Positions 30,322 through 46,637 are shown, numbered from the stretch's first letter. The stretch: DNA of 64,000 bases from a virus (IMGVR_UViG_2744054962_000001); one strand, 5' to 3'. Notes: generated by a model not told the origin, from the sequence alone. Numbers and translations: made by a program.

Positions 30322-31425
30322 ATGAAAAATAGCTTTGACAGAGCACGCGCTGCGGAGAACACCTCAAAAGAGGCGATTGAGTATCTCGAAAGAGCATCTC
30401 AAATGCAGGCCGTTATGATCTCCCAGGTCAGCAATGACATGAGATTCTCGGACGCATTCATGTTATTCACTCGCTTATCTCTGCTGATAACCAGACGTCG
30501 GCCAGAGATCGCTGTTCATTGTATTTTGATACATGTTTTGCCGCACATTGCCGATGTAAAAGTAAGTGACATTAATAGGTTCATGGTGAACCAACTGGTC
30601 AACCCACTAATACTGGATGGCAAAATTGTTATGGGCCGCCGCGTTTTCTCTCTGATGAAGCAGTTCCTTAGCTGGTGCGCCTTCCAGGGGATGATAGACG
30701 TGTCACCGTTAAACGATATGTCACTTAACAAAGTTGCCGGTGGCGCAAAGCCCACACCTCGCGAGCGGAAGCTGACCGACGCAGAGGTATGGGTGTTCTG
30801 GAATATATGGGACTACTTCAATGTGTGTGCTGGTACAAAATGGGCGGCCAGGCTATGTCTTGTATCCGCAAGACGACCTGACGAAGTACTGCGGGCTAAA
30901 AAAAGTGAGTTCAATCTTAAGCGTGGGGTTTGGAATCAAGGCAAGAGGAACAAATCTGCCCGTGAGCATTCTCTGCCTTTAAGCTCATTAATGCGCACTT
31001 GTATTGAAGAGTTGTTCGAATATGGTAAAGACAGCCAGTGGCTCGTGCCTTCGAATAAAAAAATCGGGAAAGACCTTCCTATGTCTAAAGTGGCAATAGC
31101 CCAGGCATTACGTCGTATTCTGGAACGACCAGAACTGATGGAGCTTGAGCCATTTACACCCCGAGATTTGCGCCGTACTGCGCGTAGTTACTTCCCAGCA
31201 TTAGGCATAAGCCAGGAGGTATCACGTAAAATCATGAACCACAGTCTTGAGGGGATAGATCGGGTCTACGACCGGCACGATTATATGGACGAGATGCGAG
31301 ACGCCTTAGAAAGTTTCTCGACGTACATCGCATCAATCGTAGAGCAACCGGATTTAGACGAAATTGACCACAAATTCAAGGGAGATCGTCTATCAACAGA
31401 GCTTATTCGTGTAAATTTTTCATAG
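30322..31425 (+). CDS. tyrosine site-specific recombinase (Cre-like, no arm-binding domain evident)
   Basis: catalytic-domain pattern: ...SARRPDEVLRAKKSEF...HSLPLS...RDLRRTARSY...MNHSLEGIDRVYDRHDY (R, H-x-x-R, terminal Tyr region). Confidence 0.75.
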   Translation: MKNSFDRARAAENTSKEAIEYLERASQMQAVMISQVSNDMRFSDAFMLFTRLSLLITRRRPEIAVHCILIHVLPHIADVKVSDINRFMVNQLVNPLILDGKIVMGRRVFSLMKQFLSWCAFQGMIDVSPLNDMSLNKVAGGAKPTPRERKLTDAEVWVFWNIWDYFNVCAGTKWAARLCLVSARRPDEVLRAKKSEFNLKRGVWNQGKRNKSAREHSLPLSSLMRTCIEELFEYGKDSQWLVPSNKKIGKDLPMSKVAIAQALRRILERPELMELEPFTPRDLRRTARSYFPALGISQEVSRKIMNHSLEGIDRVYDRHDYMDEMRDALESFSTYIASIVEQPDLDEIDHKFKGDRLSTELIRVNFS

Positions 31426-31806
31426 AGACTTTATGGCCTCAACAACCTTTTGTGATGCGCCTTTCTCTTTACCGAATCGCTCGTTATATGCAGCAAGAAC
31501 CTGTTTTTCGTCCTCGTTAAGAGGAGCAGTGCCTTCTTTGTATAAAAATGCTGCGAGTTCGGGTTGGCGTTCTTCCAGCACCATCATCATAAGACGACTT
31601 GGCTCAATACCCAGTGCCAGCGCCAGCGGACGAACCTTATCGATAGGCAAAGGAATTTTGCCGCTTTTAATTAAAGAAAGGTTGTTGGCGTTTTTATACC
31701 CAATTGTTTTGGCTATCTGGGCCTGGCTCATAGGTGAGGATTCAATCAACCCTGCGATAAAAGCAGCGTAGCGACTTTCTATAAATTCAATCTTGTTATC
31801 AGACAT
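31420..31806 (-). CDS. HTH (XRE-like) transcriptional regulator, candidate repressor
   Basis: 128 aa, helix-turn-helix at MSQAQIAKTIGYKNANNLSLIKSGK; convergent with recombinase. Confidence 0.55.
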   Translation of the reverse strand: MSDNKIEFIESRYAAFIAGLIESSPMSQAQIAKTIGYKNANNLSLIKSGKIPLPIDKVRPLALALGIEPSRLMMMVLEERQPELAAFLYKEGTAPLNEDEKQVLAAYNERFGKEKGASQKVVEAIKSL

Positions 31807-32057: not shown

Positions 32058-32270
32058 ATGAACACCACTATTTCCAGCCTAATCGCTCTTGAGATCGGAC
32101 ACGTACAGAAATTAGTTGATGAGTGTGTAGCTGACATCCTCACCGATCTACCGAATGAGCAGATTCAGGTTGGTGTGAATGACACAACTGGATTTATATT
32201 CGAACTTAACAACAAACGCTTCACGCTTCTCAATACCGGCTCCGGGTCTTTAGCCGTCAGAATCTGTTAA
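32058..32270 (+). CDS. hypothetical protein
   Basis: 70 aa ORF followed by stem-loop CTGCGCGAA...TTCGCGCAG. Confidence 0.25.
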   Translation: MNTTISSLIALEIGHVQKLVDECVADILTDLPNEQIQVGVNDTTGFIFELNNKRFTLLNTGSGSLAVRIC

Positions 32271-32368
32271 CCCCTCTTCTCCCTGCGCGAATGGCTTAGT
32301 TCCCTGTTCGCGCAGTGCTACATTAAACACACTAGTAAATAATTTGTTTTCATAACAAAGGATTAGCC

Positions 32369-34477
32369 ATGTCTAAAAAACGTTCCATCAAAGAGGTTCA
32401 GGACTTCCGTGACAGTGTAAAACGAGTAGTCGCTCTCCTTTCAGGTAAAAACATCCCTGTTGCAGAACGAGGGGACGACGCTTATGTACGCTATAACGAT
32501 GATGGAGAGCCAATTCTCGTAAACATCCCATCAATCCCGGATAACGCAACACCGGCATTGATGAATGCTGTGCGCGGATTTCTCGATCATGAGGTTGCTC
32601 ACATTTTGTTTACCGATATTCGTGTGTCCAACAAAATGAGAGAAAAAGGACGCGTTCCTTCCTGGTCGCTATGGAATGCCTTAGAAGACGTGTTCATCGA
32701 GCGAAAAATGGGTCAGGTCTTTAACGGAACAAGACGTAATCTGATGGCAACTCAGCGCCTTATAATCGAAAAAGTCTTTAAACCAAAGGCTTCAGAGGCT
32801 ATTGCTTATTGTGGCAAAGATCAGCGCGCGCTTTTTCTAAACTTCTTTCTCTGTCCGGTTGTAAGAGCCTGGGATGGCCAAGCACCGTTCGTAGATTTCA
32901 TGGATGAATATTGGCCTGTCATTGAGAAACCAATTTCATTATTAAAAGAACATGGTATCGATGTGGCCGTGCGTAACATGTCTTGCACCGAGGATTGTGT
33001 AAAGGTGGCTGCGACCATAGCTAAGATCCTCAAAGACACTGAAAGTGAAAGCAAAGGTAAGGAGTCAGCTCCGGGAAAAACTTCCGATCCTTCAGACGCT
33101 GACCAGACGGATGCCTCTGGAGAAAACAATGAAGATAACGAAGATCATGAGACACCCTCAGCGTTAGATAATCACAAATCTATCAAATCAGAATCACACA
33201 GTAAGCACAAACATGATAATAATGACAGTGATGATTTAGATAATTCTGAATCATCAGAAACAATATTCGATGATACAGAAAATGATAAAGAGGTATCAGA
33301 TTCTGATGCTTCTGATAACGCGGCGTCAGAATCATTAACCGCTGACCACGAAAAAAGAAAAACGACAGAAGACGGCTCTTCAGATATTCCAACTCCGTCA
33401 AAAATGAGTCTGGAAGAGGCTTTAGAGGAGCTGGATAGCATAGAAGATGAAGTCGGAGGCATGACAGAAGATGCTCTATCCGAAACGATTAAAAGCGAGT
33501 TAACAGAAAGCTCGAAAAGCGAATACAGGCCATACAATCGCTCATACGACTTCATCGGCTCGATTGATCAGGCAGAAGCCCATATCAAACGGCTTATTAA
33601 AACATTCTCCGATATTGATTTAGGAGGATGTCCAATCAGCCGCTATCGCATCGTTCCTGAAGGCAACCAGCTCTTCGACAAATATATTGAAAAGCATCTT
33701 TCGTCAGGTGTTTCGTCGACGCTGGCAAAAGACCTGGAGCGAGCAATAGCAAGCAGAAACAGAGTTCAGTTTATACCGGGCCAGCGTCGGGGGCGCATTC
33801 ATGGTTCTAGTATCTACAGATTAGCAATGAATGATGATCGCGTGTTTCGTAAAAAAGAAGAATCTAAAGCCGTTAACGCCTGTGTTCAACAAGTGATTGA
33901 TTTATCAGGTTCAATGAGGGGTATAACGATACAATTGGCTCTTGCAAGTGCATATACCATCGCCGATGCCCTTGATCGAATAAATGTTCCCAACATTATC
34001 ACCGGCTTCACTACATTTGGTAGTCATATGGCGGCAGGAGAACTTAAGGCTGTCAAGTATGAGTTCTCTCGCTTTGAATCTTTAATGCTACCTATCATCA
34101 AAAATTGGAATGAAAAGGTAAATTCTCGCGAAGTTCGCTCACGTATGGGGTGCGTAGGCTACACATTCCCACTTCTTAATAACGTGGATGGTGAAAGCAT
34201 AGCCAGCCTTGCATCGTTATTTTCCGGTCGCATGGAGGACAGGAAGATCATGCTTGTTCTGAGCGATGGCGAGCCGTGGGCTGTTGGGAGAGGTTTTGAC
34301 GCTCATTTGCGTTCGGTTGCGAAGCAAATTGAAACGCAGACTGACATTGATTTGATGGCAATTGGCATCATGACTGACGCACCGGAGAGATTTTACTCAA
34401 ATCATGCCCTGGTAACGAGCGTTGATAGTCTTGGTTCATCTGTAGTTACTGAACTATCTCGTATCATTTTAAAGTGA
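32369..34477 (+). CDS. CobT-like vWA-domain protein with hyper-acidic linker
   Basis: 702 aa; central Asp/Glu/Ser-rich low-complexity region; C-terminal vWA-like region (DLSGSM); paired with downstream MoxR/CobS-like ATPase. Confidence 0.55.
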   Translation: MSKKRSIKEVQDFRDSVKRVVALLSGKNIPVAERGDDAYVRYNDDGEPILVNIPSIPDNATPALMNAVRGFLDHEVAHILFTDIRVSNKMREKGRVPSWSLWNALEDVFIERKMGQVFNGTRRNLMATQRLIIEKVFKPKASEAIAYCGKDQRALFLNFFLCPVVRAWDGQAPFVDFMDEYWPVIEKPISLLKEHGIDVAVRNMSCTEDCVKVAATIAKILKDTESESKGKESAPGKTSDPSDADQTDASGENNEDNEDHETPSALDNHKSIKSESHSKHKHDNNDSDDLDNSESSETIFDDTENDKEVSDSDASDNAASESLTADHEKRKTTEDGSSDIPTPSKMSLEEALEELDSIEDEVGGMTEDALSETIKSELTESSKSEYRPYNRSYDFIGSIDQAEAHIKRLIKTFSDIDLGGCPISRYRIVPEGNQLFDKYIEKHLSSGVSSTLAKDLERAIASRNRVQFIPGQRRGRIHGSSIYRLAMNDDRVFRKKEESKAVNACVQQVIDLSGSMRGITIQLALASAYTIADALDRINVPNIITGFTTFGSHMAAGELKAVKYEFSRFESLMLPIIKNWNEKVNSREVRSRMGCVGYTFPLLNNVDGESIASLASLFSGRMEDRKIMLVLSDGEPWAVGRGFDAHLRSVAKQIETQTDIDLMAIGIMTDAPERFYSNHALVTSVDSLGSSVVTELSRIILK

Positions 34478-34572
34478 ACAAAACAGCCTTAACGATAAGT
34501 AACCACTTACGATAGATAATGATATATTTATATAAGAAGTTGAACGCTCATTAGAAAACAAAGGAAAAACGC

Positions 34573-35808
34573 ATGACTACTACTGCACTGCAAAATGAAA
34601 AAAATCCTTCTGATTACCTTGTTTGCAAATGGTGCGGAAAATCATTTCACTATTTTAAGTCCCATGTAGCCAATGGTAATTGCGAGGGCATTCCTGAGTC
34701 AGTAAAAGATGCCGATCCTGACACCGTACTGAAAATGTACACAACACAGTTTCCAGATGAGCCAACGCTATCGAAAAAGGCACTTGATGCAATTCAAGCT
34801 AAACGTGCCGAGCAAAAAAGCGAAATGACCAAATCATCTGGCGTGACCAGTAGCCCAGGCTACACAGGCACAGTTGAGTACAAGACAGATCTGGTCGCAG
34901 CTCACGAACTGCTAAATGTAACGGTGAAAGAACTCGGAACAAAACGTGGGACGCCGCTCATGGTTAGCGTCAACGTCAATACGCCGTTTCCAGAGTTCGT
35001 TCCAGAAGTGAAGAAGGGCTACGTATATGGCGACTTCGAACTGATCAAAGACATTTTCATGATGCTTGAACTTGGCATACCTGGCTATTTGTGGGGTCAT
35101 GCAGGAACAGGCAAATCTTCATTGCCTACACAACTATGTGCTTTGCTCAATCGTCCGTTAATCCGTGCCCAACATACAGCATCAATGGAAGAGGCTCATG
35201 TTACGGGACAAATTCTGGCGCGTGATGGCTCTACGTATTTCGAGCCTGGCTTGCTTGCGCTCGCAATGAAGCATGGCTGGGTTTACCTCGCGGATGAATA
35301 CGACTTTGCGTTTCCACAAATTCTTGGCGTGTATCAGCCAGTGCTGGAAGGTGAAGCGTTAGTCATCAAAGAGGCAACTCCAGAATGGCGTCGCATTACT
35401 CCGCATGAACGGTTTGCTTTCATTGGCACTGGCAACACGAACGGATCTGGTGATGAAACCGGCTTGTACCAGGGTACAAACATCCAGAACGCCGCGAACT
35501 TTTCGCGTTTTGGCATCGTTTCGAATGTGAAATACATGAGCAAAGAGGCAGAGATCAACATGTTGATAAATGCCGGTATCGTGGATGAATACGCAGAAAA
35601 GATGGTTAAGTTTGCCGGTATCGTTCGCGATGGATACGAAGAACACCTTATCAGTCAGCCAATTGGCCCTCGTGAACTTTTGTTGTCGGCCAAGATTGGA
35701 ATGATGCGAGGCGACTTTGTGACAGGTATTGAGCGTTCTTTCATTAACAAACTCCCTTCAGCTTCTGCACAAGCGGCTCGTGAAGTTGTTCAAAAAATAT
35801 TTGGTTGA
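34573..35808 (+). CDS. CobS/MoxR-like AAA+ ATPase
   Basis: Walker A GHAGTGKSS, Walker B VYLADEYD; N-terminal Cys/His cluster. Confidence 0.65.
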   Translation: MTTTALQNEKNPSDYLVCKWCGKSFHYFKSHVANGNCEGIPESVKDADPDTVLKMYTTQFPDEPTLSKKALDAIQAKRAEQKSEMTKSSGVTSSPGYTGTVEYKTDLVAAHELLNVTVKELGTKRGTPLMVSVNVNTPFPEFVPEVKKGYVYGDFELIKDIFMMLELGIPGYLWGHAGTGKSSLPTQLCALLNRPLIRAQHTASMEEAHVTGQILARDGSTYFEPGLLALAMKHGWVYLADEYDFAFPQILGVYQPVLEGEALVIKEATPEWRRITPHERFAFIGTGNTNGSGDETGLYQGTNIQNAANFSRFGIVSNVKYMSKEAEINMLINAGIVDEYAEKMVKFAGIVRDGYEEHLISQPIGPRELLLSAKIGMMRGDFVTGIERSFINKLPSASAQAAREVVQKIFG

Positions 35809-35988
35809 TCGTGCGTAAAGGATGTTTCGGCTCTCTTATCGCTGCTTCTGAAACTGGTAAGGCTTGTCTGGTATGTCCAGACAAGCCCGATTGTCACCAA
35901 TCAGCAAAAGAAGTTGCGATTTCGATGTATGGGAAGTTCGTAGGCTTCCCCAATGACAAAATCAAAAAAACCATAAAGGTAAAAACAC

Positions 35989-38900
35989 ATGAAAGCACTG
36001 ATGGTTCGAACTGACTTCTCACTTGGGGAGTCGGCTCTAAAAGCAGAAAACGCGGTGAAGATTGCCAGAGAAGCTGGCTACACCGCTGTAATTTCAGCAG
36101 ATAGCATGAATATTGCGAGTGTTATTCCACTACAACGTGCCGCTGGTGACGACATGGCGGTTATTTGTGGTGTGAAACTAAATATCGTTGATGATCCTAC
36201 ATACGAGCACCGGGCTAAACTTGCTAAAGAATCTATGAGATGTATGGAATCATTAGAGCGGGGACGTAACTACTCGTTTACCGCTCTAATTAAAAATGAG
36301 CAAGGATATCGCGACATCTGCGAACTAATGACGGTGGCCAACACACGAGAACAGTTCTACTTTGTACCGCGTCTCTCGCTCGAACAGTTGGTTTCTACAT
36401 ATGCCAAAGGCAACATCATCCTGCTCACTTCCGACATCGGTAGCGTGTTCCAACGCAACGATTTTGCAAAAATCATAAGCTCACTGATTACAGCGGGCGG
36501 GAAAGACAACTTCTATAGCGTGGTTTATCCGCACCCTACCCCATTCTACGACCAGATTAACGTCCGAGCGATGAAAGTAGCCAGCGCACTGAAAATAGAG
36601 CCAGTAGCGTTCTATCCCGCTTATTACGAATCGATCGACGATGCAGACATTAAAGACATTGCGCACATGGTTACGAACAACATAAAAATCGACCAGCCGC
36701 ATCGTCTGCGTATCCCCCACCAGCGAGATAACGCCATCAATGGTCGTCGCCATCTCCTTGAGGCGCTTAAAGCCTTCTCCGTTCGCATGGATGTGCCGGT
36801 AACAGCTGCAATGGCCTCAACAACGCAGGACTCCATTATCGATGCCTGCACATGGCGCTGGCATGAATTGCCACCAGCACTGCCCAAGATGGCAGACGAC
36901 GAACCTGCAACGCTGATGAAACTGGCTGTTGCAGGGCTGCGTAAACGTCTTACCACAAAAGAGTTTGGATACACACCACCTGCTTCTGAGAACAGGGTTT
37001 ATGTTGAGCGGCTAAAGTACGAAATGAACACGCTGACTCGCCTGGGATTTTGTGGTTACTTCCTGATGGTACGCGATCTGATGAATCACAGCCGTGAAAC
37101 TGGCATTCCTGTCGGGCCTGGTCGTGGTTCCTCTGCCGGTTCTCTGGTGGCGTGGTGCATAGGCATAACCAACGTCGACCCAATCCGTCACGGTCTTCTG
37201 TTTGAGCGTTTCATCAACCCTGAGCGTCTCGACTTGCCGGATGCGGACTTGGACTTCAGCCAGGCACGTCGCCATGAGGTGATCGAGTATCTGAATGAAC
37301 GCTACGGCGAAGATTACGTTGCAGGCATTCCGAACTTCACCTACCTGGGCGCAGCCTCTGCACTACGTGACACCGCTCGTATTTATGGTGTGGAGTCCGC
37401 AGATATGGCGGTATCAAAAGAACTGAAGAACGTCGAGGATGATAGCCTTCCATTGGAAGAGCTGCGCGAACAACTGGCAAGTCTCGACAAATACGCAACA
37501 AAATATCCTGATGCATTCAATGCAGCCTGCAAGTTACAAAGCCTTATGCGTGGCTTTGGTAGACATGCGGCAGGGATGATTGTAGCAGGTGTTCCTCTGA
37601 CAGAACGTACACCGGTTGAGCGCCGTGGTGACGCGCGTTGTATCGCATTTGACAAGCGTTACTGCGAGGCTATGGGCCTAATTAAGCTGGACGTGCTTGG
37701 CCTGGCAACTCTCGATTTGCTCGATAGTGCAAAACGCTACATAAAAGAGAACACAGGTGAAGATATCAATCTTGATGCCATTTCTCTTGAAGATCGCAAG
37801 GTGCTGGATGGTTTTGCTGCAGGGTATACACAGGGCGTATTCCAGCTGGAGTCCGGCCCCATGCGCAAGCTGCTTAAAGATCTAGGCGGTGGCATTGAGC
37901 CAATGAGCTTTAAAACCGTTGTCGCCACGACCGCACTCTTCCGACCTGGCCCGATCCAATCCGGCATGTTGGACGACTATGTCTCCGTGGCCAAAGGCTT
38001 CATGGCTCCACATTCAATTCATCCGCGTCTTGAGGAAGTCACCCGGGAGACTAATGGTGTTTTGCTCTATCAGGAACAAATCATGCAAAGTTCCCGAGTA
38101 CTTGCCGGGTTCTCTATGGCCGAAGCAGACGCTCTGCGTTCCGCTATCGGTAAAAAGAACATGGATAAGATGAAAGCGATCGGCAGCGATTTTGTAGAAC
38201 GAGCACAAGCAGGCTGGGTGACACTGTCACTCAAAAATGGAGGCACTGTAGAGGTTCACAAACACGCAAAACTGGATTGCTCAGACGGTAAGCGTAGAAG
38301 CTACAGCGAGGCTATTAGTGACGGCATAGACTACGTGGAGATCGTCTCTGAACAAGAAGGTCTCAGTAAGGAAAAAGCCCAAGAAATATGGGACGCCTTT
38401 GAGAAGTTCGGTGGATATGCCTTCAATAAATCACACTCCGTTGCTTATTCTTTAATCAGTTATCAGTCTATGTGGTTAAAGACACATTACCCTGCTGAGT
38501 TCTTCGCTGCTGCGCTCACCATTCTGGGCGAGGATAAGCACCAGGGGCTGGTTAAGGATGCGCTGACCTATGGCATTCGCGTATTGCCACCAGACGTTAA
38601 CGTGTCATCTAACCGAATCGAGATCCGCACGCTTGAAGATGGCAGCCAGGTGCTGTATGCGCCATTCTCTGCTGTGAAAGGCTGTTCTGAAAATGGTTGT
38701 CAGGCAATTATGCGTGCGCGTGAGAAAGTTGGTGGCAAATTCGAGTCAGTGGCACAATTCGATGAAGCGGTCGAGAAGCGTGCATGTAACAGTCGTGTAC
38801 GCGAGTCGCTTCATAAAGTAGGGGCTTTTGCGTCAATTGAGCCAGGCAGTCTGCCAGCAACTGATCCTGAACGACTGCGCGACCAGGCTGAGCTGATGGG

Positions 38901-39495
38901 CAATCTCATCATTGACGCTGTTAAAGCATCACGTCCGTTCGAAATGAATCCTAAGCGTTCTGCCGAAATCAACGTACTCATGACACGTATGGCGGCTGAA
39001 ATGGGCTTGGGTGAGGAGTTGATACGCCCGACTATTGGTATTAAACCCAAAATCATGATCATTCTGGACAATGCGAACGGCAATGACGCTCGTACCGGCT
39101 ACTTCATGGAGAACGGATACGACGACTTTAAGGCAAAACTACTGACAGTTGGAGATCTGCGCATGGGCGATCTTTATGTCACGGGTGTTTGTAAGAAGGT
39201 TAAGGACAAAGAGAAAGACTATACCAAAGACGAGATAGGCCAGTTCACAGACTTTATGCGGGAAGAAATTAATCTTGTACGACCAACCTACATTTTGACG
39301 TGTGGTAGTCGTTCAACCGCACTATTTAACAATAAGAGTAAACCATCAGATCTGATTGGTCGTAAGGAGTACTTCCCAGAGCTTGATGCAACCGTCTTCT
39401 ACGGATTTAACCCGAATATCCTGTACTTCCGACCGGAAGAAGGAGAGCGACTGGAGGCCATTCTGGCTGATATCGCGGAGACAATAAATAAGTAA
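35989..39495 (+). CDS. DNA polymerase III alpha-type (DnaE-like) replicative polymerase with N-terminal PHP domain
   Basis: 1168 aa; N-terminal PHP-like region, polymerase core motifs (GPGRGSSAGSLVAWCIGITNVDP; LGLIKLDVLGL; LFRPGP). Confidence 0.85.
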   Translation: MKALMVRTDFSLGESALKAENAVKIAREAGYTAVISADSMNIASVIPLQRAAGDDMAVICGVKLNIVDDPTYEHRAKLAKESMRCMESLERGRNYSFTALIKNEQGYRDICELMTVANTREQFYFVPRLSLEQLVSTYAKGNIILLTSDIGSVFQRNDFAKIISSLITAGGKDNFYSVVYPHPTPFYDQINVRAMKVASALKIEPVAFYPAYYESIDDADIKDIAHMVTNNIKIDQPHRLRIPHQRDNAINGRRHLLEALKAFSVRMDVPVTAAMASTTQDSIIDACTWRWHELPPALPKMADDEPATLMKLAVAGLRKRLTTKEFGYTPPASENRVYVERLKYEMNTLTRLGFCGYFLMVRDLMNHSRETGIPVGPGRGSSAGSLVAWCIGITNVDPIRHGLLFERFINPERLDLPDADLDFSQARRHEVIEYLNERYGEDYVAGIPNFTYLGAASALRDTARIYGVESADMAVSKELKNVEDDSLPLEELREQLASLDKYATKYPDAFNAACKLQSLMRGFGRHAAGMIVAGVPLTERTPVERRGDARCIAFDKRYCEAMGLIKLDVLGLATLDLLDSAKRYIKENTGEDINLDAISLEDRKVLDGFAAGYTQGVFQLESGPMRKLLKDLGGGIEPMSFKTVVATTALFRPGPIQSGMLDDYVSVAKGFMAPHSIHPRLEEVTRETNGVLLYQEQIMQSSRVLAGFSMAEADALRSAIGKKNMDKMKAIGSDFVERAQAGWVTLSLKNGGTVEVHKHAKLDCSDGKRRSYSEAISDGIDYVEIVSEQEGLSKEKAQEIWDAFEKFGGYAFNKSHSVAYSLISYQSMWLKTHYPAEFFAAALTILGEDKHQGLVKDALTYGIRVLPPDVNVSSNRIEIRTLEDGSQVLYAPFSAVKGCSENGCQAIMRAREKVGGKFESVAQFDEAVEKRACNSRVRESLHKVGAFASIEPGSLPATDPERLRDQAELMGNLIIDAVKASRPFEMNPKRSAEINVLMTRMAAEMGLGEELIRPTIGIKPKIMIILDNANGNDARTGYFMENGYDDFKAKLLTVGDLRMGDLYVTGVCKKVKDKEKDYTKDEIGQFTDFMREEINLVRPTYILTCGSRSTALFNNKSKPSDLIGRKEYFPELDATVFYGFNPNILYFRPEEGERLEAILADIAETINK

Positions 39496-39798: not shown

Positions 39799-40014
39799 TC
39801 AGCTTAGAGCAACGACATTTGCTGCTGCTGGGCCTTTAGCACCATTCTCGATAGAGAATTCGACCTGCTGGCCTTCTTCCAAAGTGCGGAAATTATTACT
39901 CTGAATTGCCGAAAAATGTACAAAAACATCTTTACTGCCATCAGCAGGAGAAATAAAGCCAAAGCCTTTATCAGAGTTAAACCATTTTACTAAACCAGTC
40001 ATTTTATTAGACAT
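39799..40014 (-). CDS. cold-shock protein (CspA family)
   Basis: [23 protein letters not shown]...[12 protein letters not shown]1/RNP2-type cold-shock domain; start at internal Met of the track ORF. Confidence 0.8.
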
Positions 40015-40343
40015 AGATATTACCTTCTTAATTTTGTGAGCCACATAGTGCGGCGAGAATTTGATCTGTATAGATTGGGACTTACTTAGGCACTTAAGGA
40101 GGAGGCTCACGAAGAAGGGAAATCAGAAGATAACACTGAACTGAGACTGCTTTACTAAAACTGCTTACATAAGGTCTGTCTTGCAAACCAACGATGCTAT
40201 TAACGCATACCCCTTCTTTTCATGCAACCTTTATTTTTCAAAGATAACTAATTTTTGTCACCATTGGTTTAGTAAACGTTAACGAACCAGACGATGCCAG
40301 ACACCTTTACAGAGAACAGATGCCCGCCAATTGGCGGGCATCA

Positions 40344-44297: not shown

Positions 44298-46637
44298 ATG
44301 GCAAAAGGAAAATCCGCACTGGCACTTGCTCTGAAAAAGAAAATCGGTAGCAACGACGAAATTCAGAAAGTAACTCATTGGATTGATACAGGCTTTCCAC
44401 CGTTAAACAAAGCTATTTCTGGTCGTTACGATGGCGGCTTCCCATGTGGTCGTATCGTCGAAGTATTCGGTCCTCCAAGCGCGGGGAAATGTGTTACCGC
44501 AGACACCATGCTGCTGACGGAGCGTGGAATGGTAACAGTGAAAGAGTTGTTTGAGATTGAAGGGTACAAAGCGACATGCACTACTCGCGATGTAGAGCAT
44601 AACGTTGGACTCATCAATGAAAATGGCGTGATAGAGAAGACCTCACACCTGACATGGAACAACCGTCGCAAATTCAAGCGTATTAAGCTGGCATCAGGCG
44701 GTTATATCGAGGCTACGTTCCGTCACCCAATCCGTGTGGTTGACGACTTAGGTAATGTCGTCTGGCGACATGCTGAAAAAATCAGTGTAGGCGACACGAT
44801 TCCTTCAATGGTTGGCACACATCAATTCGGCGATCAGCACCTGGATGCCAATATCGCAAAACTGATGGGCTATTTAATTGCTGACGGATACGTGGCCTCT
44901 GAAAATTCAGTGAATTTTTCTAACACAGATCCTTTCATCAAGGATGAGTACTACCGCCTCATTTCGCTGGTATCAGACAAGATGCCAGTTACGAGAAAAC
45001 ATAACGGCTCGGAAGACCATGTGCTGTTTAGCAAAGAGGTGCGTTCGCTGCTTTTTAAAGAATATGGTCTGGAGTATGAGAAAGCTGCTGGCAAGCAGGT
45101 TCCGTTGAGTGTGCGTCGCGCCAATAGCGAGGCTCAAATTGCATTCCTTCGCGGCTACTTTGAGCTGGAATGCCACGTCAATGATGGTCGCTGCATTGAG
45201 GTTGTGAGCGCGAGTGGGCTGCTGCTACAGCAAATTCGCCTCATGCTCCTGAATCTGGGGATTACGTCAACTATCTCTGAAAAACACGTCGCGGGTTATG
45301 AAAATACATATTACCGGCTGTCATTCAGTGGCTCTAATTACGACCTTTTTCTGTCAACGATTGGTTTCGAATCTCCGGCACGTTTATCAGTGGCAACCAA
45401 ACGGGACATTGGTTTTGACCGCACTTACTCAGGCTATGTTCCGCACATCAGCGGCTTAGTGAAATCACTCTACGAGTCGCTCACCAAGACCACCCGTGAA
45501 GACTACGCTCTGGTAGACCACGTTATTGGCCGCGGCGATCGTGTCGGAATAGACAAACTGCGAGAAATCTATGTCTCCTTCATTGGCAGAAAGAATCGTT
45601 TTAACGAGCATCTGTTTGCACAACTGGCAGCGGTAATTGGCTCTAACTTGTTCTACGACGAAGTCGTGGCTATTGAGGAAGGTGAAGCACCAACGTTCGA
45701 CGTAGCGATGCCGGAAACACACTCTTTCTGGTCTAACGGGATTATCAGCCACAACACATTCCTTGCAACAGCAGCGATGATCTCCGCTCAAAAACAAGAT
45801 GGTCTGGCGGTATTCCTCGATCATGAAAACAGTTTTGACGTTGGCCTGGCTGTAGCCAATGGCCTGAACGCAGATGAGGATGACGGTCAGTGGGTATACA
45901 AGCAGCCTGATACCTTCGAAGACTCTGTAGAGTTGATCGGCACAATACTTAAATTGGTACGTGATGAAGAGCTTATCCCCGAATCAGCACCTATCTGTAT
46001 CGTGGCTGACTCTCTTGCGTCTATGGTTCCGAACTCCAAAGCCGAGAAGTTCGAAAAGATGGCTGAAGGCACTGCCAAAGACAAAGATCAGCTAAACATG
46101 AACGACAATACGGCACTGGCTCGTGCGACGAGTGCGAACTTCCCTACTCTGGCTTTGTGGGCACGCAAATACAACGCCTGCATCATCTTCTTGAATCAGG
46201 TTCGCACAAAAATCGGTGTAATGTTTGGCGACCCTACTACGTCGCCAGGTGGAGATTCACCGAAGTTCTACGCATCTGTACGTATCCGTCTTGGTGCATC
46301 GGTGATGAAGGATGGTAAAGAGAAGATCGGTCAGGACGTAGGCGCAGAATGCATCAAAAACAAAGTTGCACCACCGTATGGCAAATGCACCTGGAAATTC
46401 TACTTCGATCCTACTCGTGGCCTCGACGTTATCGAGTCGCTCGTCGAGTACATGCTGGAAGAAGGATACCTGCCAAAGAACGCCAGCGGTCGAGTAGAAA
46501 TTGGTGACAAGAAATACACCAAATCACAGATCGTCGAGATGTATCGGGAGAAGCCACTGGCTGAAATCATTGCGGCTTTGCAGGCAATCGACGACCGAAG
46601 AGCAAAAGACAACCCCACCGAGTCAGTAGAAGAGTAA
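44298..46637 (+). CDS. RecA-family recombinase interrupted by an intein
   Basis: exteins join as GPPSAGK|TFLATAAM (P-loop) with RecA-like L2 region GGDSPKFYASVRIRLG; combined exteins about 357 aa. Confidence 0.8.
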   Translation: MAKGKSALALALKKKIGSNDEIQKVTHWIDTGFPPLNKAISGRYDGGFPCGRIVEVFGPPSAGKCVTADTMLLTERGMVTVKELFEIEGYKATCTTRDVEHNVGLINENGVIEKTSHLTWNNRRKFKRIKLASGGYIEATFRHPIRVVDDLGNVVWRHAEKISVGDTIPSMVGTHQFGDQHLDANIAKLMGYLIADGYVASENSVNFSNTDPFIKDEYYRLISLVSDKMPVTRKHNGSEDHVLFSKEVRSLLFKEYGLEYEKAAGKQVPLSVRRANSEAQIAFLRGYFELECHVNDGRCIEVVSASGLLLQQIRLMLLNLGITSTISEKHVAGYENTYYRLSFSGSNYDLFLSTIGFESPARLSVATKRDIGFDRTYSGYVPHISGLVKSLYESLTKTTREDYALVDHVIGRGDRVGIDKLREIYVSFIGRKNRFNEHLFAQLAAVIGSNLFYDEVVAIEEGEAPTFDVAMPETHSFWSNGIISHNTFLATAAMISAQKQDGLAVFLDHENSFDVGLAVANGLNADEDDGQWVYKQPDTFEDSVELIGTILKLVRDEELIPESAPICIVADSLASMVPNSKAEKFEKMAEGTAKDKDQLNMNDNTALARATSANFPTLALWARKYNACIIFLNQVRTKIGVMFGDPTTSPGGDSPKFYASVRIRLGASVMKDGKEKIGQDVGAECIKNKVAPPYGKCTWKFYFDPTRGLDVIESLVEYMLEEGYLPKNASGRVEIGDKKYTKSQIVEMYREKPLAEIIAALQAIDDRRAKDNPTESVEE
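44490..45755 (+). mobile_element. intein with LAGLIDADG-type homing endonuclease domain inside recA-like gene
   Basis: begins with Cys directly after SAGK, ends ...IISHN followed by Thr; internal LAGLIDADG-like motifs (LMGYLIADGYV, FLRGYFELECHV); 422 aa. Confidence 0.75.

Follow-up and report, generated by a model that had tools for sequence, protein, structure and literature searches.

What use does a phage of Escherichia coli have for genes that resemble two subunits of cobaltochelatase, an enzyme of vitamin B12 synthesis? The question is posed by positions 32369 to 35808 of the viral sequence IMGVR_UViG_2744054962_000001, of which a stretch of 64,000 nucleotides (nt), here called the window, was analyzed. 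These 3.4 kb hold a gene for a CobT-like protein followed by a gene for a CobS-like AAA+ ATPase, and they are 99.7% identical at the nucleotide level to the corresponding part of Escherichia phage Cyrano, which is pLF82, an SSU5-like phage-plasmid. The pair belongs to the core lytic-cycle genes of this element. It is homologous to the motor and the adaptor of cobaltochelatase and yet, judging from sequence, is almost certainly not that enzyme. We lean instead, without great confidence, toward a lytic-phase motor-adaptor of the MoxR type that would capture a protein client, remodel it with ATP, and probably cleave either the client or itself. The pair is already annotated and is of a kind described in viruses, where it is usually filed as a B12 gene.

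An intact motor and adaptor

The original prediction held that a 702-amino-acid (aa) CobT-like protein with a vWA domain is paired here with an ATPase of the CobS/MoxR class bearing clear Walker A and B motifs. The open reading frames (ORFs) lie exactly where it placed them, Pfam agrees with both assignments, and the two motifs were found. Because E-values from hidden Markov models reach down to 1e-82 and homologs number in the thousands, neither ORF nor domain is a chance feature. The two genes, which are separated by a gap of 95 nt, and their parts are as follows.

32369..34477 (+), CobT-related adaptor, 702 aa, ATG start; ORF call, Pfam, and PDB matches
32369..33034 (+), N-terminal domain (N-domain) of the adaptor, aa 1-222, predicted to be zincin-like: helix 1, a three-stranded sheet, then helices
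32588..32602 (+), HEVAH (H74-E75-x-x-H78), the zincin HExxH motif within GFLDHEVAH; invariant in family alignments
32675..32701 (+), helix with invariant N103, E106, D107, and E111; alignments and model
33035..33538 (+), Asp/Glu/Ser-rich putative tether, aa 223-390, net charge about -36; composition
33719..33880 (+), conserved basic segment, aa 451-504, aligning with the "shaft" of Brucella CobT; alignments
33842..34471 (+), vWA domain, aa 492-701, with a complete MIDAS, an adhesion site dependent on metal ions; Pfam and PDB CobT entries 21vt/9uka
34573..35808 (+), CobS-like AAA+ ATPase, 411 aa, ATG start (AAA_5, helix-2-insert/MoxR-dynein class); ORF call, Pfam, and PDB matches
34624..34665 (+), C18-x2-C21-x4-H26-x4-H31, predicted beta-beta-alpha zinc finger; alignment and model
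34993..35805 (+), AAA+ core and lid, aa 141-411; 29% identity to true CobS (E = 7e-33), PDB 9ujv at E = 1.7e-25

Residues known from Brucella were placed on the window proteins, and their invariance was judged in 22 CobS-like and 49 CobT-like relatives. In the ATPase, Pfam AAA_5 (PF07728) covers aa 173-293 (E = 2.1e-15), Walker A reads GHAGTGKS (aa 175-182, nt 35095-35118), and Walker B reads VYLADE (aa 237-242, nt 35281-35298), with D241-E242 at its end. Sensor-1 N288, the Arg finger R312, and sensor-2 R367 map from Brucella and, like Walker A and D241-E242, are invariant. The next PDB matches are to Midasin, CbbQ, and NorQ, those to Midasin (6or5, 6i27, 5jcs) at E ~1e-11.

In the adaptor, Pfam recognizes the CobT N-domain (PF06213, aa 9-294, E = 4.5e-27) and the CobT_C vWA domain (PF11775, aa 492-701, E = 3.7e-82), and the vWA part matches the Brucella melitensis CobT structure at a profile E of 2.4e-54. 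The MIDAS includes DLSGS (aa 511-515, nt 33899-33913); D511-x-S513-x-S515, N605, and D633 are all invariant and correspond to Brucella D422/S424/S426/N518/D546. Few parts of the protein are as strongly conserved as segment 451-504, its invariant residues including L452, K454, L456, E457, R458, A459, G471, R473, G475, R476, R484, L485, D489, R491, and F493; by analogy with Brucella, it may act as a shaft that is inserted into the ring pore. All catalytic and metal-site residues of the pair are thus intact, and an ATPase with its full set of residues beside a vWA gene with a complete MIDAS is what defines the MoxR-class AAA+/vWA pairs.

The predicted zinc finger opens an N-terminal extension of ~100 aa on the ATPase, window aa 141 aligning with residue 38 of Brucella CobS. 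The extension is modeled with a predicted local distance difference test (pLDDT) score of 77-91 over aa 12-84, and the motif Y56...FPDxPTLS is conserved after the finger. It is kept to 45% identity in the SSU5-like supergroup and is absent from the cyanophage and ICP2-like proteins and from bona fide CobS, which measures 328-341 aa. Its ligand may be a nucleic acid or a protein partner.

Three further observations concern CobS-like proteins elsewhere. In Roseobacter phage CRP-810, gp06 (L092, 1827-3680) is a CobS of 617 aa with an unrelated N-terminal extension of ~330 aa, and the gene order is cobS-cobT, unlike that of the other phages examined. At relaxed thresholds, AAA_5 ATPases of Herelleviridae (e.g., Staphylococcus phage 812, KJ206562.1, 20593-21315, and Listeria phage LP-125) match the CobS core with E = 1e-6 to 1e-8 and ~25% identity; these matches come from ~300 Staphylococcus and Listeria myoviruses, and some carry the label "porphyrin biosynthesis." In Xanthomonas phage JGB6 (L090, OQ436456.1), the replication region is split into short ORFs that include several "DNA polymerase III alpha" and "AAA ATPase" fragments. 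A CobS lying within "DnaE" in JGB6 was discarded as a candidate because the record is fragmented, which points to frameshift errors in the deposited sequence.

Homology to cobaltochelatase

The Brucella melitensis enzyme (PDB 9ujv, 9uka, 21vt) supplies the mechanical model. Its CobS is a hexameric ring; its CobT has an M48C-peptidase-like N-domain that docks on the CobS lid, an acidic, disordered linker of ~90 residues, and a vWA domain; the "shaft" ahead of the vWA domain enters the CobS ring pore upon nucleotide binding; and CobN, the catalytic subunit, contacts the MIDAS side of CobT and never CobS (10.64898/2026.07.21.739949). The window pair shares the catalytic residues of the CobS core, the CobT layout of N-domain, acidic linker, and vWA domain with MIDAS, and the adjacency of the two genes. 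Because the mapped Brucella residues are present and invariant and the shaft segment is conserved, the mechanics of motor and adaptor are very probably conserved between the two systems.

This homology, evident in Pfam and PDB searches alike, is also what favors a role in B12 synthesis, as do database names such as "porphyrin/cobalamin biosynthesis protein"; such a role is the usual reading in the literature and has been proposed for ICP2 and for archaeal and bacterial tailed viruses. The evidence from this element goes the other way. Scores against the NCBIfam equivalog models are 7 to 11 times under the cutoffs (68 bits versus 759.05 for CobT, TIGR01651; 84.8 bits versus 558.55 for CobS, TIGR01650). 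In BLASTP searches against a true Brucellaceae pair, identity is 27% for CobT, over the shaft and vWA domain only, and 29% for CobS. True loci have the order cobS-cobT and the shorter CobS (four loci with ORFs listed), while the window has cobT-cobS and a CobS of 411 aa. No CobN and no B12-dependent enzyme are found among the 126 annotated features of the ~108-kb Cyrano genome, whose ribonucleotide reductase (RNR) is of class Ia and whose thymidylate synthase is ThyX. E. coli, whose chromosome was not itself scanned, has neither a de novo corrin pathway nor CobN and possesses only B12 salvage genes; a de novo corrin pathway in this species needed ~30 foreign genes, including cobN, cobS, and cobT. 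Vibrio cholerae, the host of the ICP2-like homologs, is likewise not known to have a de novo B12 pathway. The chelatase-type reaction that the original prediction had listed among the possible roles is therefore effectively excluded here by the equivalog scores, the lack of CobN, and host biology, and the expression data presented below likewise led us to reject a cobaltochelatase/B12 role.

Viral cobST clusters elsewhere (CobS plus "peptidase" of cyanophages, ORF41/42 of ICP2, and those of haloarchaeal tailed viruses) resemble the window pair as two-gene cassettes with an HExxH and MIDAS adaptor and a CobS-type ATPase. They differ in that CobS identity is 25-31%, the C2H2 N-terminal extension is missing, and the linkers are less extreme. 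In hosts with CobN (cyanobacteria, haloarchaea), a B12 role is less firmly excluded than in the window element.

Database labels for the pair add to the confusion. The Cyrano record (OV696614.1, 43137-46576, CYRAN_47/48) calls the two genes "dimethylbenzimidazole phosphoribosyltransferase" and "cobalamin synthetase," and neither function is backed by Pfam or NCBIfam. The Salmonella proteins named CobT and CobS are enzymes distinct from the chelatase subunits of Pseudomonas nomenclature, and the Cyrano labels are a mis-transfer arising from this collision of names. RefSeq uses "cobaltochelatase CobT-related protein" and "AAA family ATPase."

A zincin motif separates viral adaptors from chelatase CobT

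The N-terminal domain of the adaptor, whose presence was correctly predicted but left uninterpreted, is predicted to be zincin-like and carries an invariant HExxH. In alignments of 49 and 62 relatives (~30% identical), H74, E75, and H78 and, ~25 residues farther on, N103, E106, D107, and E111 are all invariant. An AlphaFold model of aa 1-225 (pLDDT 89.4) comprises a helix, a three-stranded sheet, the HExxH helix (62-81), and a Glu helix (99-117). HExxH with a downstream Glu on following helices, conserved family-wide, is a pattern of M48-like zincins, and E106 or E111 is a candidate third metal ligand in the gluzincin pattern. No peptidase model in Pfam matches the N-domain, a phmmer search with it against PDB gave chance matches only, and Foldseek against PDB returned nothing significant from a copy that seemingly did not include the new CobT_N structure.

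A HMMER search of 1.8 billion cluster representatives gave 5,050 matches at E ≤ 1e-3. The best 150 of these matches include 145 full-length proteins, of which 142 have HExxH and 142 have DxSGS. The N-domain fold recurs in many viral vWA/CobT-like proteins, including those of siphoviruses, podoviruses, Gordonia and Brevibacterium phages, and haloarchaeal tailed viruses, and HExxH together with a MIDAS also occurs in homologs from cyanophage S-PM2 (where the protein is labeled "Peptidase"), the ICP2-like vibriophage JSF27, and roseophage CRP-810. Since the profile search aligned Brucella CobT only from residue 102, true CobT genes for comparison were taken from 80 alphaproteobacterial genomes, among them Brucellaceae, Sinorhizobium, and Rhodobacterales, groups with assayed CobNST. 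HExxH was found in none of their 78 full-length bona fide CobTs, which instead read RG[LHI][GAS]D[SA][MI]AL[RK] at this position (DSMALR-type), with His replaced by Ser, Glu by Met, and His by Arg. That the window adaptor keeps a site absent from every true CobT examined is a further point against a B12 role. The most economical reading of these sequences is that the viral-type adaptor has a functional zincin site, or at least a metal-binding one, and that chelatase CobT would be its pseudo-peptidase derivative.

An HExxH N-domain fused to a vWA domain, encoded beside a CobS/MoxR ATPase in the genome of a tailed virus, is a combination that was noted independently in T4-related jumbo phages, as a MoxR AAA+ protein paired with a vWA domain fused to an N-terminal metallopeptidase (Iyer, Anantharaman, Krishnan, Burroughs, and Aravind 2021, PMC7824862). 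The domain logic of this pair (group 2.2, examples ASV44728/9) is identical to that of the window pair, the two being likened by domain description.

The acidic linker is a family trait

An Asp/Glu/Ser-rich segment had been predicted at about 33050-33500, and we measure it at 33035-33538. It contains 51 D/E versus 15 K/R and 18% Ser, against 65 D/E versus 73 K/R in the rest of the protein. The extreme acidity offered as a distinguishing feature is thus real, but it is not special to this protein. Across 139 representatives, the linker has a median length of 164 aa (range 26-311) with 39% D/E and 8% K/R, and it is a hallmark of the whole motor family and no peculiarity of the window protein, whose linker of 168 aa compares with the ~90 aa of Brucella. 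Close relatives with 74-80% identity in the N-domain share only 62-69% over the whole protein, at lengths of 684-790 aa, and the linker is the fastest-evolving part of the CobT-like protein. A scan of the window found no tandem DNA repeat beneath the segment, and a tandem-repeat origin was rejected on this ground.

Analogous D/E-rich linkers are found in Midasin and in Mg-chelatase subunit D. Rea1/Midasin resembles the window pair in its AAA_5-type modules, in having a long linker rich in D/E, and in a MIDAS through which a client is docked and the force generated with ATP is passed on. It differs in being one giant eukaryotic polypeptide with six fused AAA modules that serves ribosome biogenesis and has no peptidase domain.

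Replication context and expression

The neighbors of the pair in the window are the following.

30322..31425 (+), integrase; ORF call and Pfam
31420..31806 (-), helix-turn-helix (HTH) repressor, divergent; ORF call and Pfam
32058..32270 (+), small ORF, 70 aa, phrog_2627; opens the rightward transcription unit diverging from the repressor
32285..32317 (+), GC-rich hairpin/inverted repeat between the small ORF and cobT
35805..36014 (+), small ORF, 69 aa, TTG start; phrog_6337 match at E = 2.2e-44, overlapping the cobS stop and the dnaE start
35989..39495 (+), DnaE-type DNA polymerase III alpha, 1168 aa; conserved neighbor downstream of the pair

The element to which these genes belong is widespread. 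The locus is 95-99.7% identical to its counterparts in 194 E. coli and Shigella plasmids and is present in 219 of 5,426 complete E. coli genomes, in 228 places that are all plasmid-borne. Its near-identity and synteny with Cyrano-type elements, and a DnaE that is 88% identical to that of SSU5, make it an SSU5-like phage-plasmid. Cyrano is a siphovirus with a structural and lysis block, partition and toxin-antitoxin genes, and RepA; its T4-like replication-recombination set comprises helicase, primase, ligase, DnaE, epsilon exonuclease, a gp32-like single-stranded DNA-binding protein, UvsY, RecA/UvsX, UvsW, SbcCD, and RuvC, and it also encodes class Ia NrdAB, ThyX, and dihydrofolate reductase.

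Integrase and repressor do lie upstream of the pair, as the original prediction had it, but the association that is conserved is the one with replication genes, in the order cobT-cobS-dnaE. Metagenomic phages and integrated prophages whose CobS is 45-47% identical (from Betaproteobacteria-like hosts, Ectothiorhodospira, and others) share the order integrase, divergent HTH repressor, small ORF, cobT, cobS, DnaE, gp32, 5'-3' exonuclease, and RecA; some of them have a sigma70_r2-like gene and a ~170-aa gene between cobS and DnaE, where the window has its 69-aa ORF. The synteny cobT-cobS-(x)-dnaE-gp32-exo-recA holds at 36-47% CobS identity, Nickievirus included, and the order cobT-cobS-dnaE holds down to ~35%. 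In Nickievirus phiK7B1, primase and ligase are followed by cobT-cobS and then by DnaE, with no integrase or repressor annotated between ligase and cobT. Because the Nickievirus pair directly follows primase and ligase, the lysogeny module looks like an insertion into an ancestral primase-ligase-cobT-cobS-dnaE block.

Outside this group, the company changes in kind of polymerase and stays the same in theme. T4-like cyanophage S-PM2 has its "Peptidase"-CobS pair between gp46/gp47 and gp45/gp44/gp62, toward gp43; in the ICP2-like JSF27, the pair lies 2.6 kb upstream of helicase and PolA; in CRP-810, it lies among small early-type genes near an integrase. From these placements, the pair travels with replication-phase genes, alongside three polymerase families, and in the cases examined never with structural genes. 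DnaE is no obligate partner. The only phages that combine a full-length DnaE of this type with CobS are the SSU5-like, Rhizobium, Stenotrophomonas, Xanthomonas, and Nickievirus ones, and the ~494 phage records with CobS are mostly those of T4-like cyanophages with PolB, while ICP2-like phages use PolA.

Expression points to the lytic phase. In RNA sequencing (RNA-seq) of LF82, the adherent-invasive, Crohn's-associated E. coli strain that is the host of pLF82, as re-analyzed by the Cyrano authors, normalized counts were 7.8 for cobT, 6.7 for cobS, and 10.1 for dnaE, compared with ~7 for terminase and major capsid, 96 for the repressor, 133 for RepA, and 141 for HicB. Because their expression in the lysogen is at the level of the terminase and capsid genes, the pair is a repressed lytic function and no moron, host-benefit, or lysogeny-maintenance gene; background expression in the lysogen also makes the role in lysogeny maintenance that had been suggested for testing unlikely. 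Silence in the carried state is likewise hard to square with a B12 supply function.

From cobT to the end of dnaE, the sole terminator-like site on the plus strand is a weak 5-pair stem inside dnaE (38808-38825), which is fewer sites than in shuffled sequence, and the pair probably shares a transcript with the gene for the phage DNA polymerase, at the front of the replication-recombination block. Ahead of it, 52 nt before cobT, an inverted repeat whose 9-bp arms, CTGCGCGAA/TTCGCGCAG, match perfectly and are spaced 15 nt apart occupies 32285-32317 and is followed by no U-tract; the 121-nt region that holds it (32255-32375) folds with -26.1 kcal/mol (z = -2.7). Because this hairpin coincides with a drop in RNA signal in macrophages (log2 10.8 for CYRAN_46 versus 5.9 for cobT in LF82 RNA-seq), read-through into cobT-cobS-dnaE is suggested to be separately controlled. 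The hairpin may serve as attenuator, processing site, or operator.

Several features of the neighborhood deserve mention in their own right. The CobT-like gene always has a small ORF of 54-77 aa immediately upstream, also in loci with no repressor close by (window, 32058-32270; in the relatives L004, 7535-7699; L006, 5525-5707; L008, 5506-5739; L009, 5344-5532; and Nickievirus L091, 4575-4763). These ORFs are barely alignable across lineages, with 27% identity at best; they could encode a regulator resembling Cro, or else a quickly evolving protein that the machine works with or acts on, and they may not belong to the machine at all. The 69-aa ORF downstream of the pair is absent from the Cyrano annotation and has a Cys-rich stretch, C-x2-C-x5-C-H. 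The C-terminal domain of DnaE (~200 aa, 38836-39495, plus strand) matches the Pfam uracil-DNA glycosylase superfamily (UDG) in the distant relatives L004, L006, L008, and L009, and in the window only at E = 0.018; DnaE-UDG is an unusual polymerase fusion. Downstream of dnaE, a CspA-like cold-shock-domain gene lies on the minus strand (39799-40110, CSD E = 4e-33); its true start is probably an internal Met, giving ~70 aa, and the Cyrano annotation has no cold-shock gene between dnaE and hicB. The RecA/UvsX-like recombinase (44298-46637, plus strand, 779 aa) contains Intein_splicing (aa 73-486) and a LAGLIDADG_3 homing endonuclease (aa 279-356), and RecA of the Ectothiorhodospira prophage relative likewise has an intein.

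What the pair may do

By homology with the Brucella complex, six CobS-like subunits would form an ATP-hydrolyzing ring, the N-domain of the CobT-like protein would dock on the ATPase lid, and the basic shaft would reach into the ring pore, leaving the MIDAS face presented to a client protein on a flexible acidic tether. In the chelatase, the same motor drives CobN. Here a client would be captured via the MIDAS, force would be applied through the shaft at the expense of ATP, and cleavage of the client, or self-cleavage, would probably follow at the zincin site; cleavage is proposed because the phage adaptor keeps the invariant HExxH...E site. Since the pair is strongly conserved across very different hosts and three polymerase families, we infer that the client is more likely a conserved phage protein or a universal host protein than a strain-specific defense factor. 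The original prediction left the role open, a position that we uphold, and other readings have to be weighed.

The alternative that survives best, though we think it unlikely, is counter-defense or host takeover, in which a host immunity or housekeeping protein is recognized via the MIDAS and unfolded or cleaved early in the lytic cycle. In its favor are the protease motif and the probable sharing of a transcript with early replication genes; a MoxR ATPase of coliphage Bas54 is required against a predicted defense system, and vWA-MoxR modules are common in conflict systems (PMC7159879). However, the Bas54 gene is not a detectable relative of this pair, and no such E. coli phage appears among the listed CobS matches and organism counts at E ≤ 1e-3. 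Anti-defense genes are usually accessory and fast-evolving, whereas this pair is present in every relative examined, with dozens of invariant residues. PADLOC gave nothing significant (a marginal DrmE match, E = 0.0026), and membership in a known defense or anti-defense family was rejected. The ternary vWA-MoxR-VMAP conflict systems (Kaur, Burroughs, Iyer, and Aravind 2020, PMC7159879) share the MoxR and vWA core and occasionally contain a metallopeptidase-vWA fusion. They differ from the window pair, which is phage-borne, lies within replication genes, and has no third component (VMAP, FtsH, or beta-propeller) and no effector domain or effector array beside it, its neighbors being two small ORFs and DnaE. 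The membership in NTP-dependent conflict systems that the original prediction had entertained is not borne out.

Somewhat less probable still is a chaperone-protease for virion assembly, in which the MoxR-like ATPase and its peptidase-vWA co-chaperone fold, assemble, or process structural proteins. The same MoxR plus metallopeptidase-vWA architecture in jumbo phages has been so interpreted, the analog being the p618/p892 system by which Acidianus two-tailed virus develops its tails (PMC7824862), and MoxR-vWA pairs are generally assembly or maturation chaperones. Against this, the structural and lysis genes are ~15 kb away from the window pair, which stands first in the replication block, with the one weak terminator-like site before the end of dnaE; the S-PM2 and ICP2-like pairs are also found among or near replication genes and not structural ones; and the literature offered no virion proteomics.

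We give little credence to a role in inserting a metal cofactor into, or activating, a phage metalloenzyme, class I RNR for instance, where HExxH would bind metal without cutting. The precedents are NorQ-NorD, which puts iron into NorB, CoxD-CoxE, and CbbQ-CbbO, and the PDB matches to CbbQ and NorQ and the presence in Cyrano of NrdAB, ThyX, and other metal or flavin enzymes are in keeping with it. CbbQ-CbbO, NorQ-NorD, and RavA-ViaA share with the window pair a hexameric MoxR-class motor and a single vWA/MIDAS adaptor that act on one protein client; they differ in that their clients are known (Rubisco, NorB, and Frd/LdcI), their adaptors have no zincin domain, and they belong to cellular operons. 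This reading is pure analogy, and no conserved adjacency to nrdAB was seen in the loci examined. As for a B12 auxiliary metabolic gene, in which phage CobS and CobT would team up with CobN of the host, stimulate the insertion of cobalt into hydrogenobyrinic acid a,c-diamide, and thereby increase the supply of B12 during infection, the evidence given above makes it scarcely credible.

A lytic-phase motor-adaptor that probably cleaves its client has to contend with several observations of its own. HExxH is degenerate or lost in P0415, P0444, P0463, and gp058 of Nickievirus phiK7B1 (L091, 4847-6931), so that catalysis is not indispensable to every lineage. The degenerate forms read DKEVAN, DHQVAL, or DQQVAR, or the motif is missing altogether, and the MIDAS and the rest of the protein are kept; such adaptors look like natural "pseudo-peptidase" intermediates resembling chelatase CobT. 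Most DnaE-encoding phages have no CobS (1,180 phage records with DnaE versus ~494 with CobS), the synteny among SSU5, Nickievirus, and Rhizobium phages may reflect only shared ancestry, and the position in S-PM2 could be merely a tolerated insertion site. The LF82 RNA-seq covers uninduced lysogens only, and early or middle timing after induction is our extrapolation. Literature searches, finally, found no functional experiment on phage CobS/CobT or on the cob genes of SSU5.

Implications

This work adds four things to what was known of such pairs. It rejects the cobaltochelatase/B12 label for this element; it shows a clean split between viral adaptors with HExxH and chelatase CobT without it; it describes a lineage-specific zinc-finger extension on the ATPase; and it finds the pair silent in lysogeny, consistent with a function in the replication phase. 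A bolder view, which we put forward as speculative and doubtful, is that phage "CobS/CobT" is an uncharacterized type of ATP-dependent protease or remodeler, built from a MoxR-class AAA+ ring and an adaptor with a client-capturing MIDAS, an acidic tether, and an active zincin, whose target would be a conserved protein of the replisome, of recombination, or universal among hosts, attacked as lytic DNA replication begins, that cobaltochelatase CobT is its pseudo-protease offshoot, and that the B12 label on viral cobST is wrong in general.

The system is a tractable one, as the element occurs in 4% of sequenced E. coli strains, including LF82, and is inducible and engineerable. If the pair proves to be needed for lytic replication, it would offer a handle on SSU5-type phage-plasmids, which are often carriers of resistance genes, and if it proves to be a new type of ATP-dependent protease with a defined client, its interest would rise substantially. 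Many virome studies count viral cobS and cobT among the B12 auxiliary metabolic genes, and in marine cyanophages both belong to the core gene set. In the E. coli phage-plasmid, whose host lacks CobN as well as a corrin pathway, the pair is conserved and intact, and its adaptor carries a metal site of protease type that is no longer present in the chelatase adaptor. The B12 annotation therefore deserves to be challenged.

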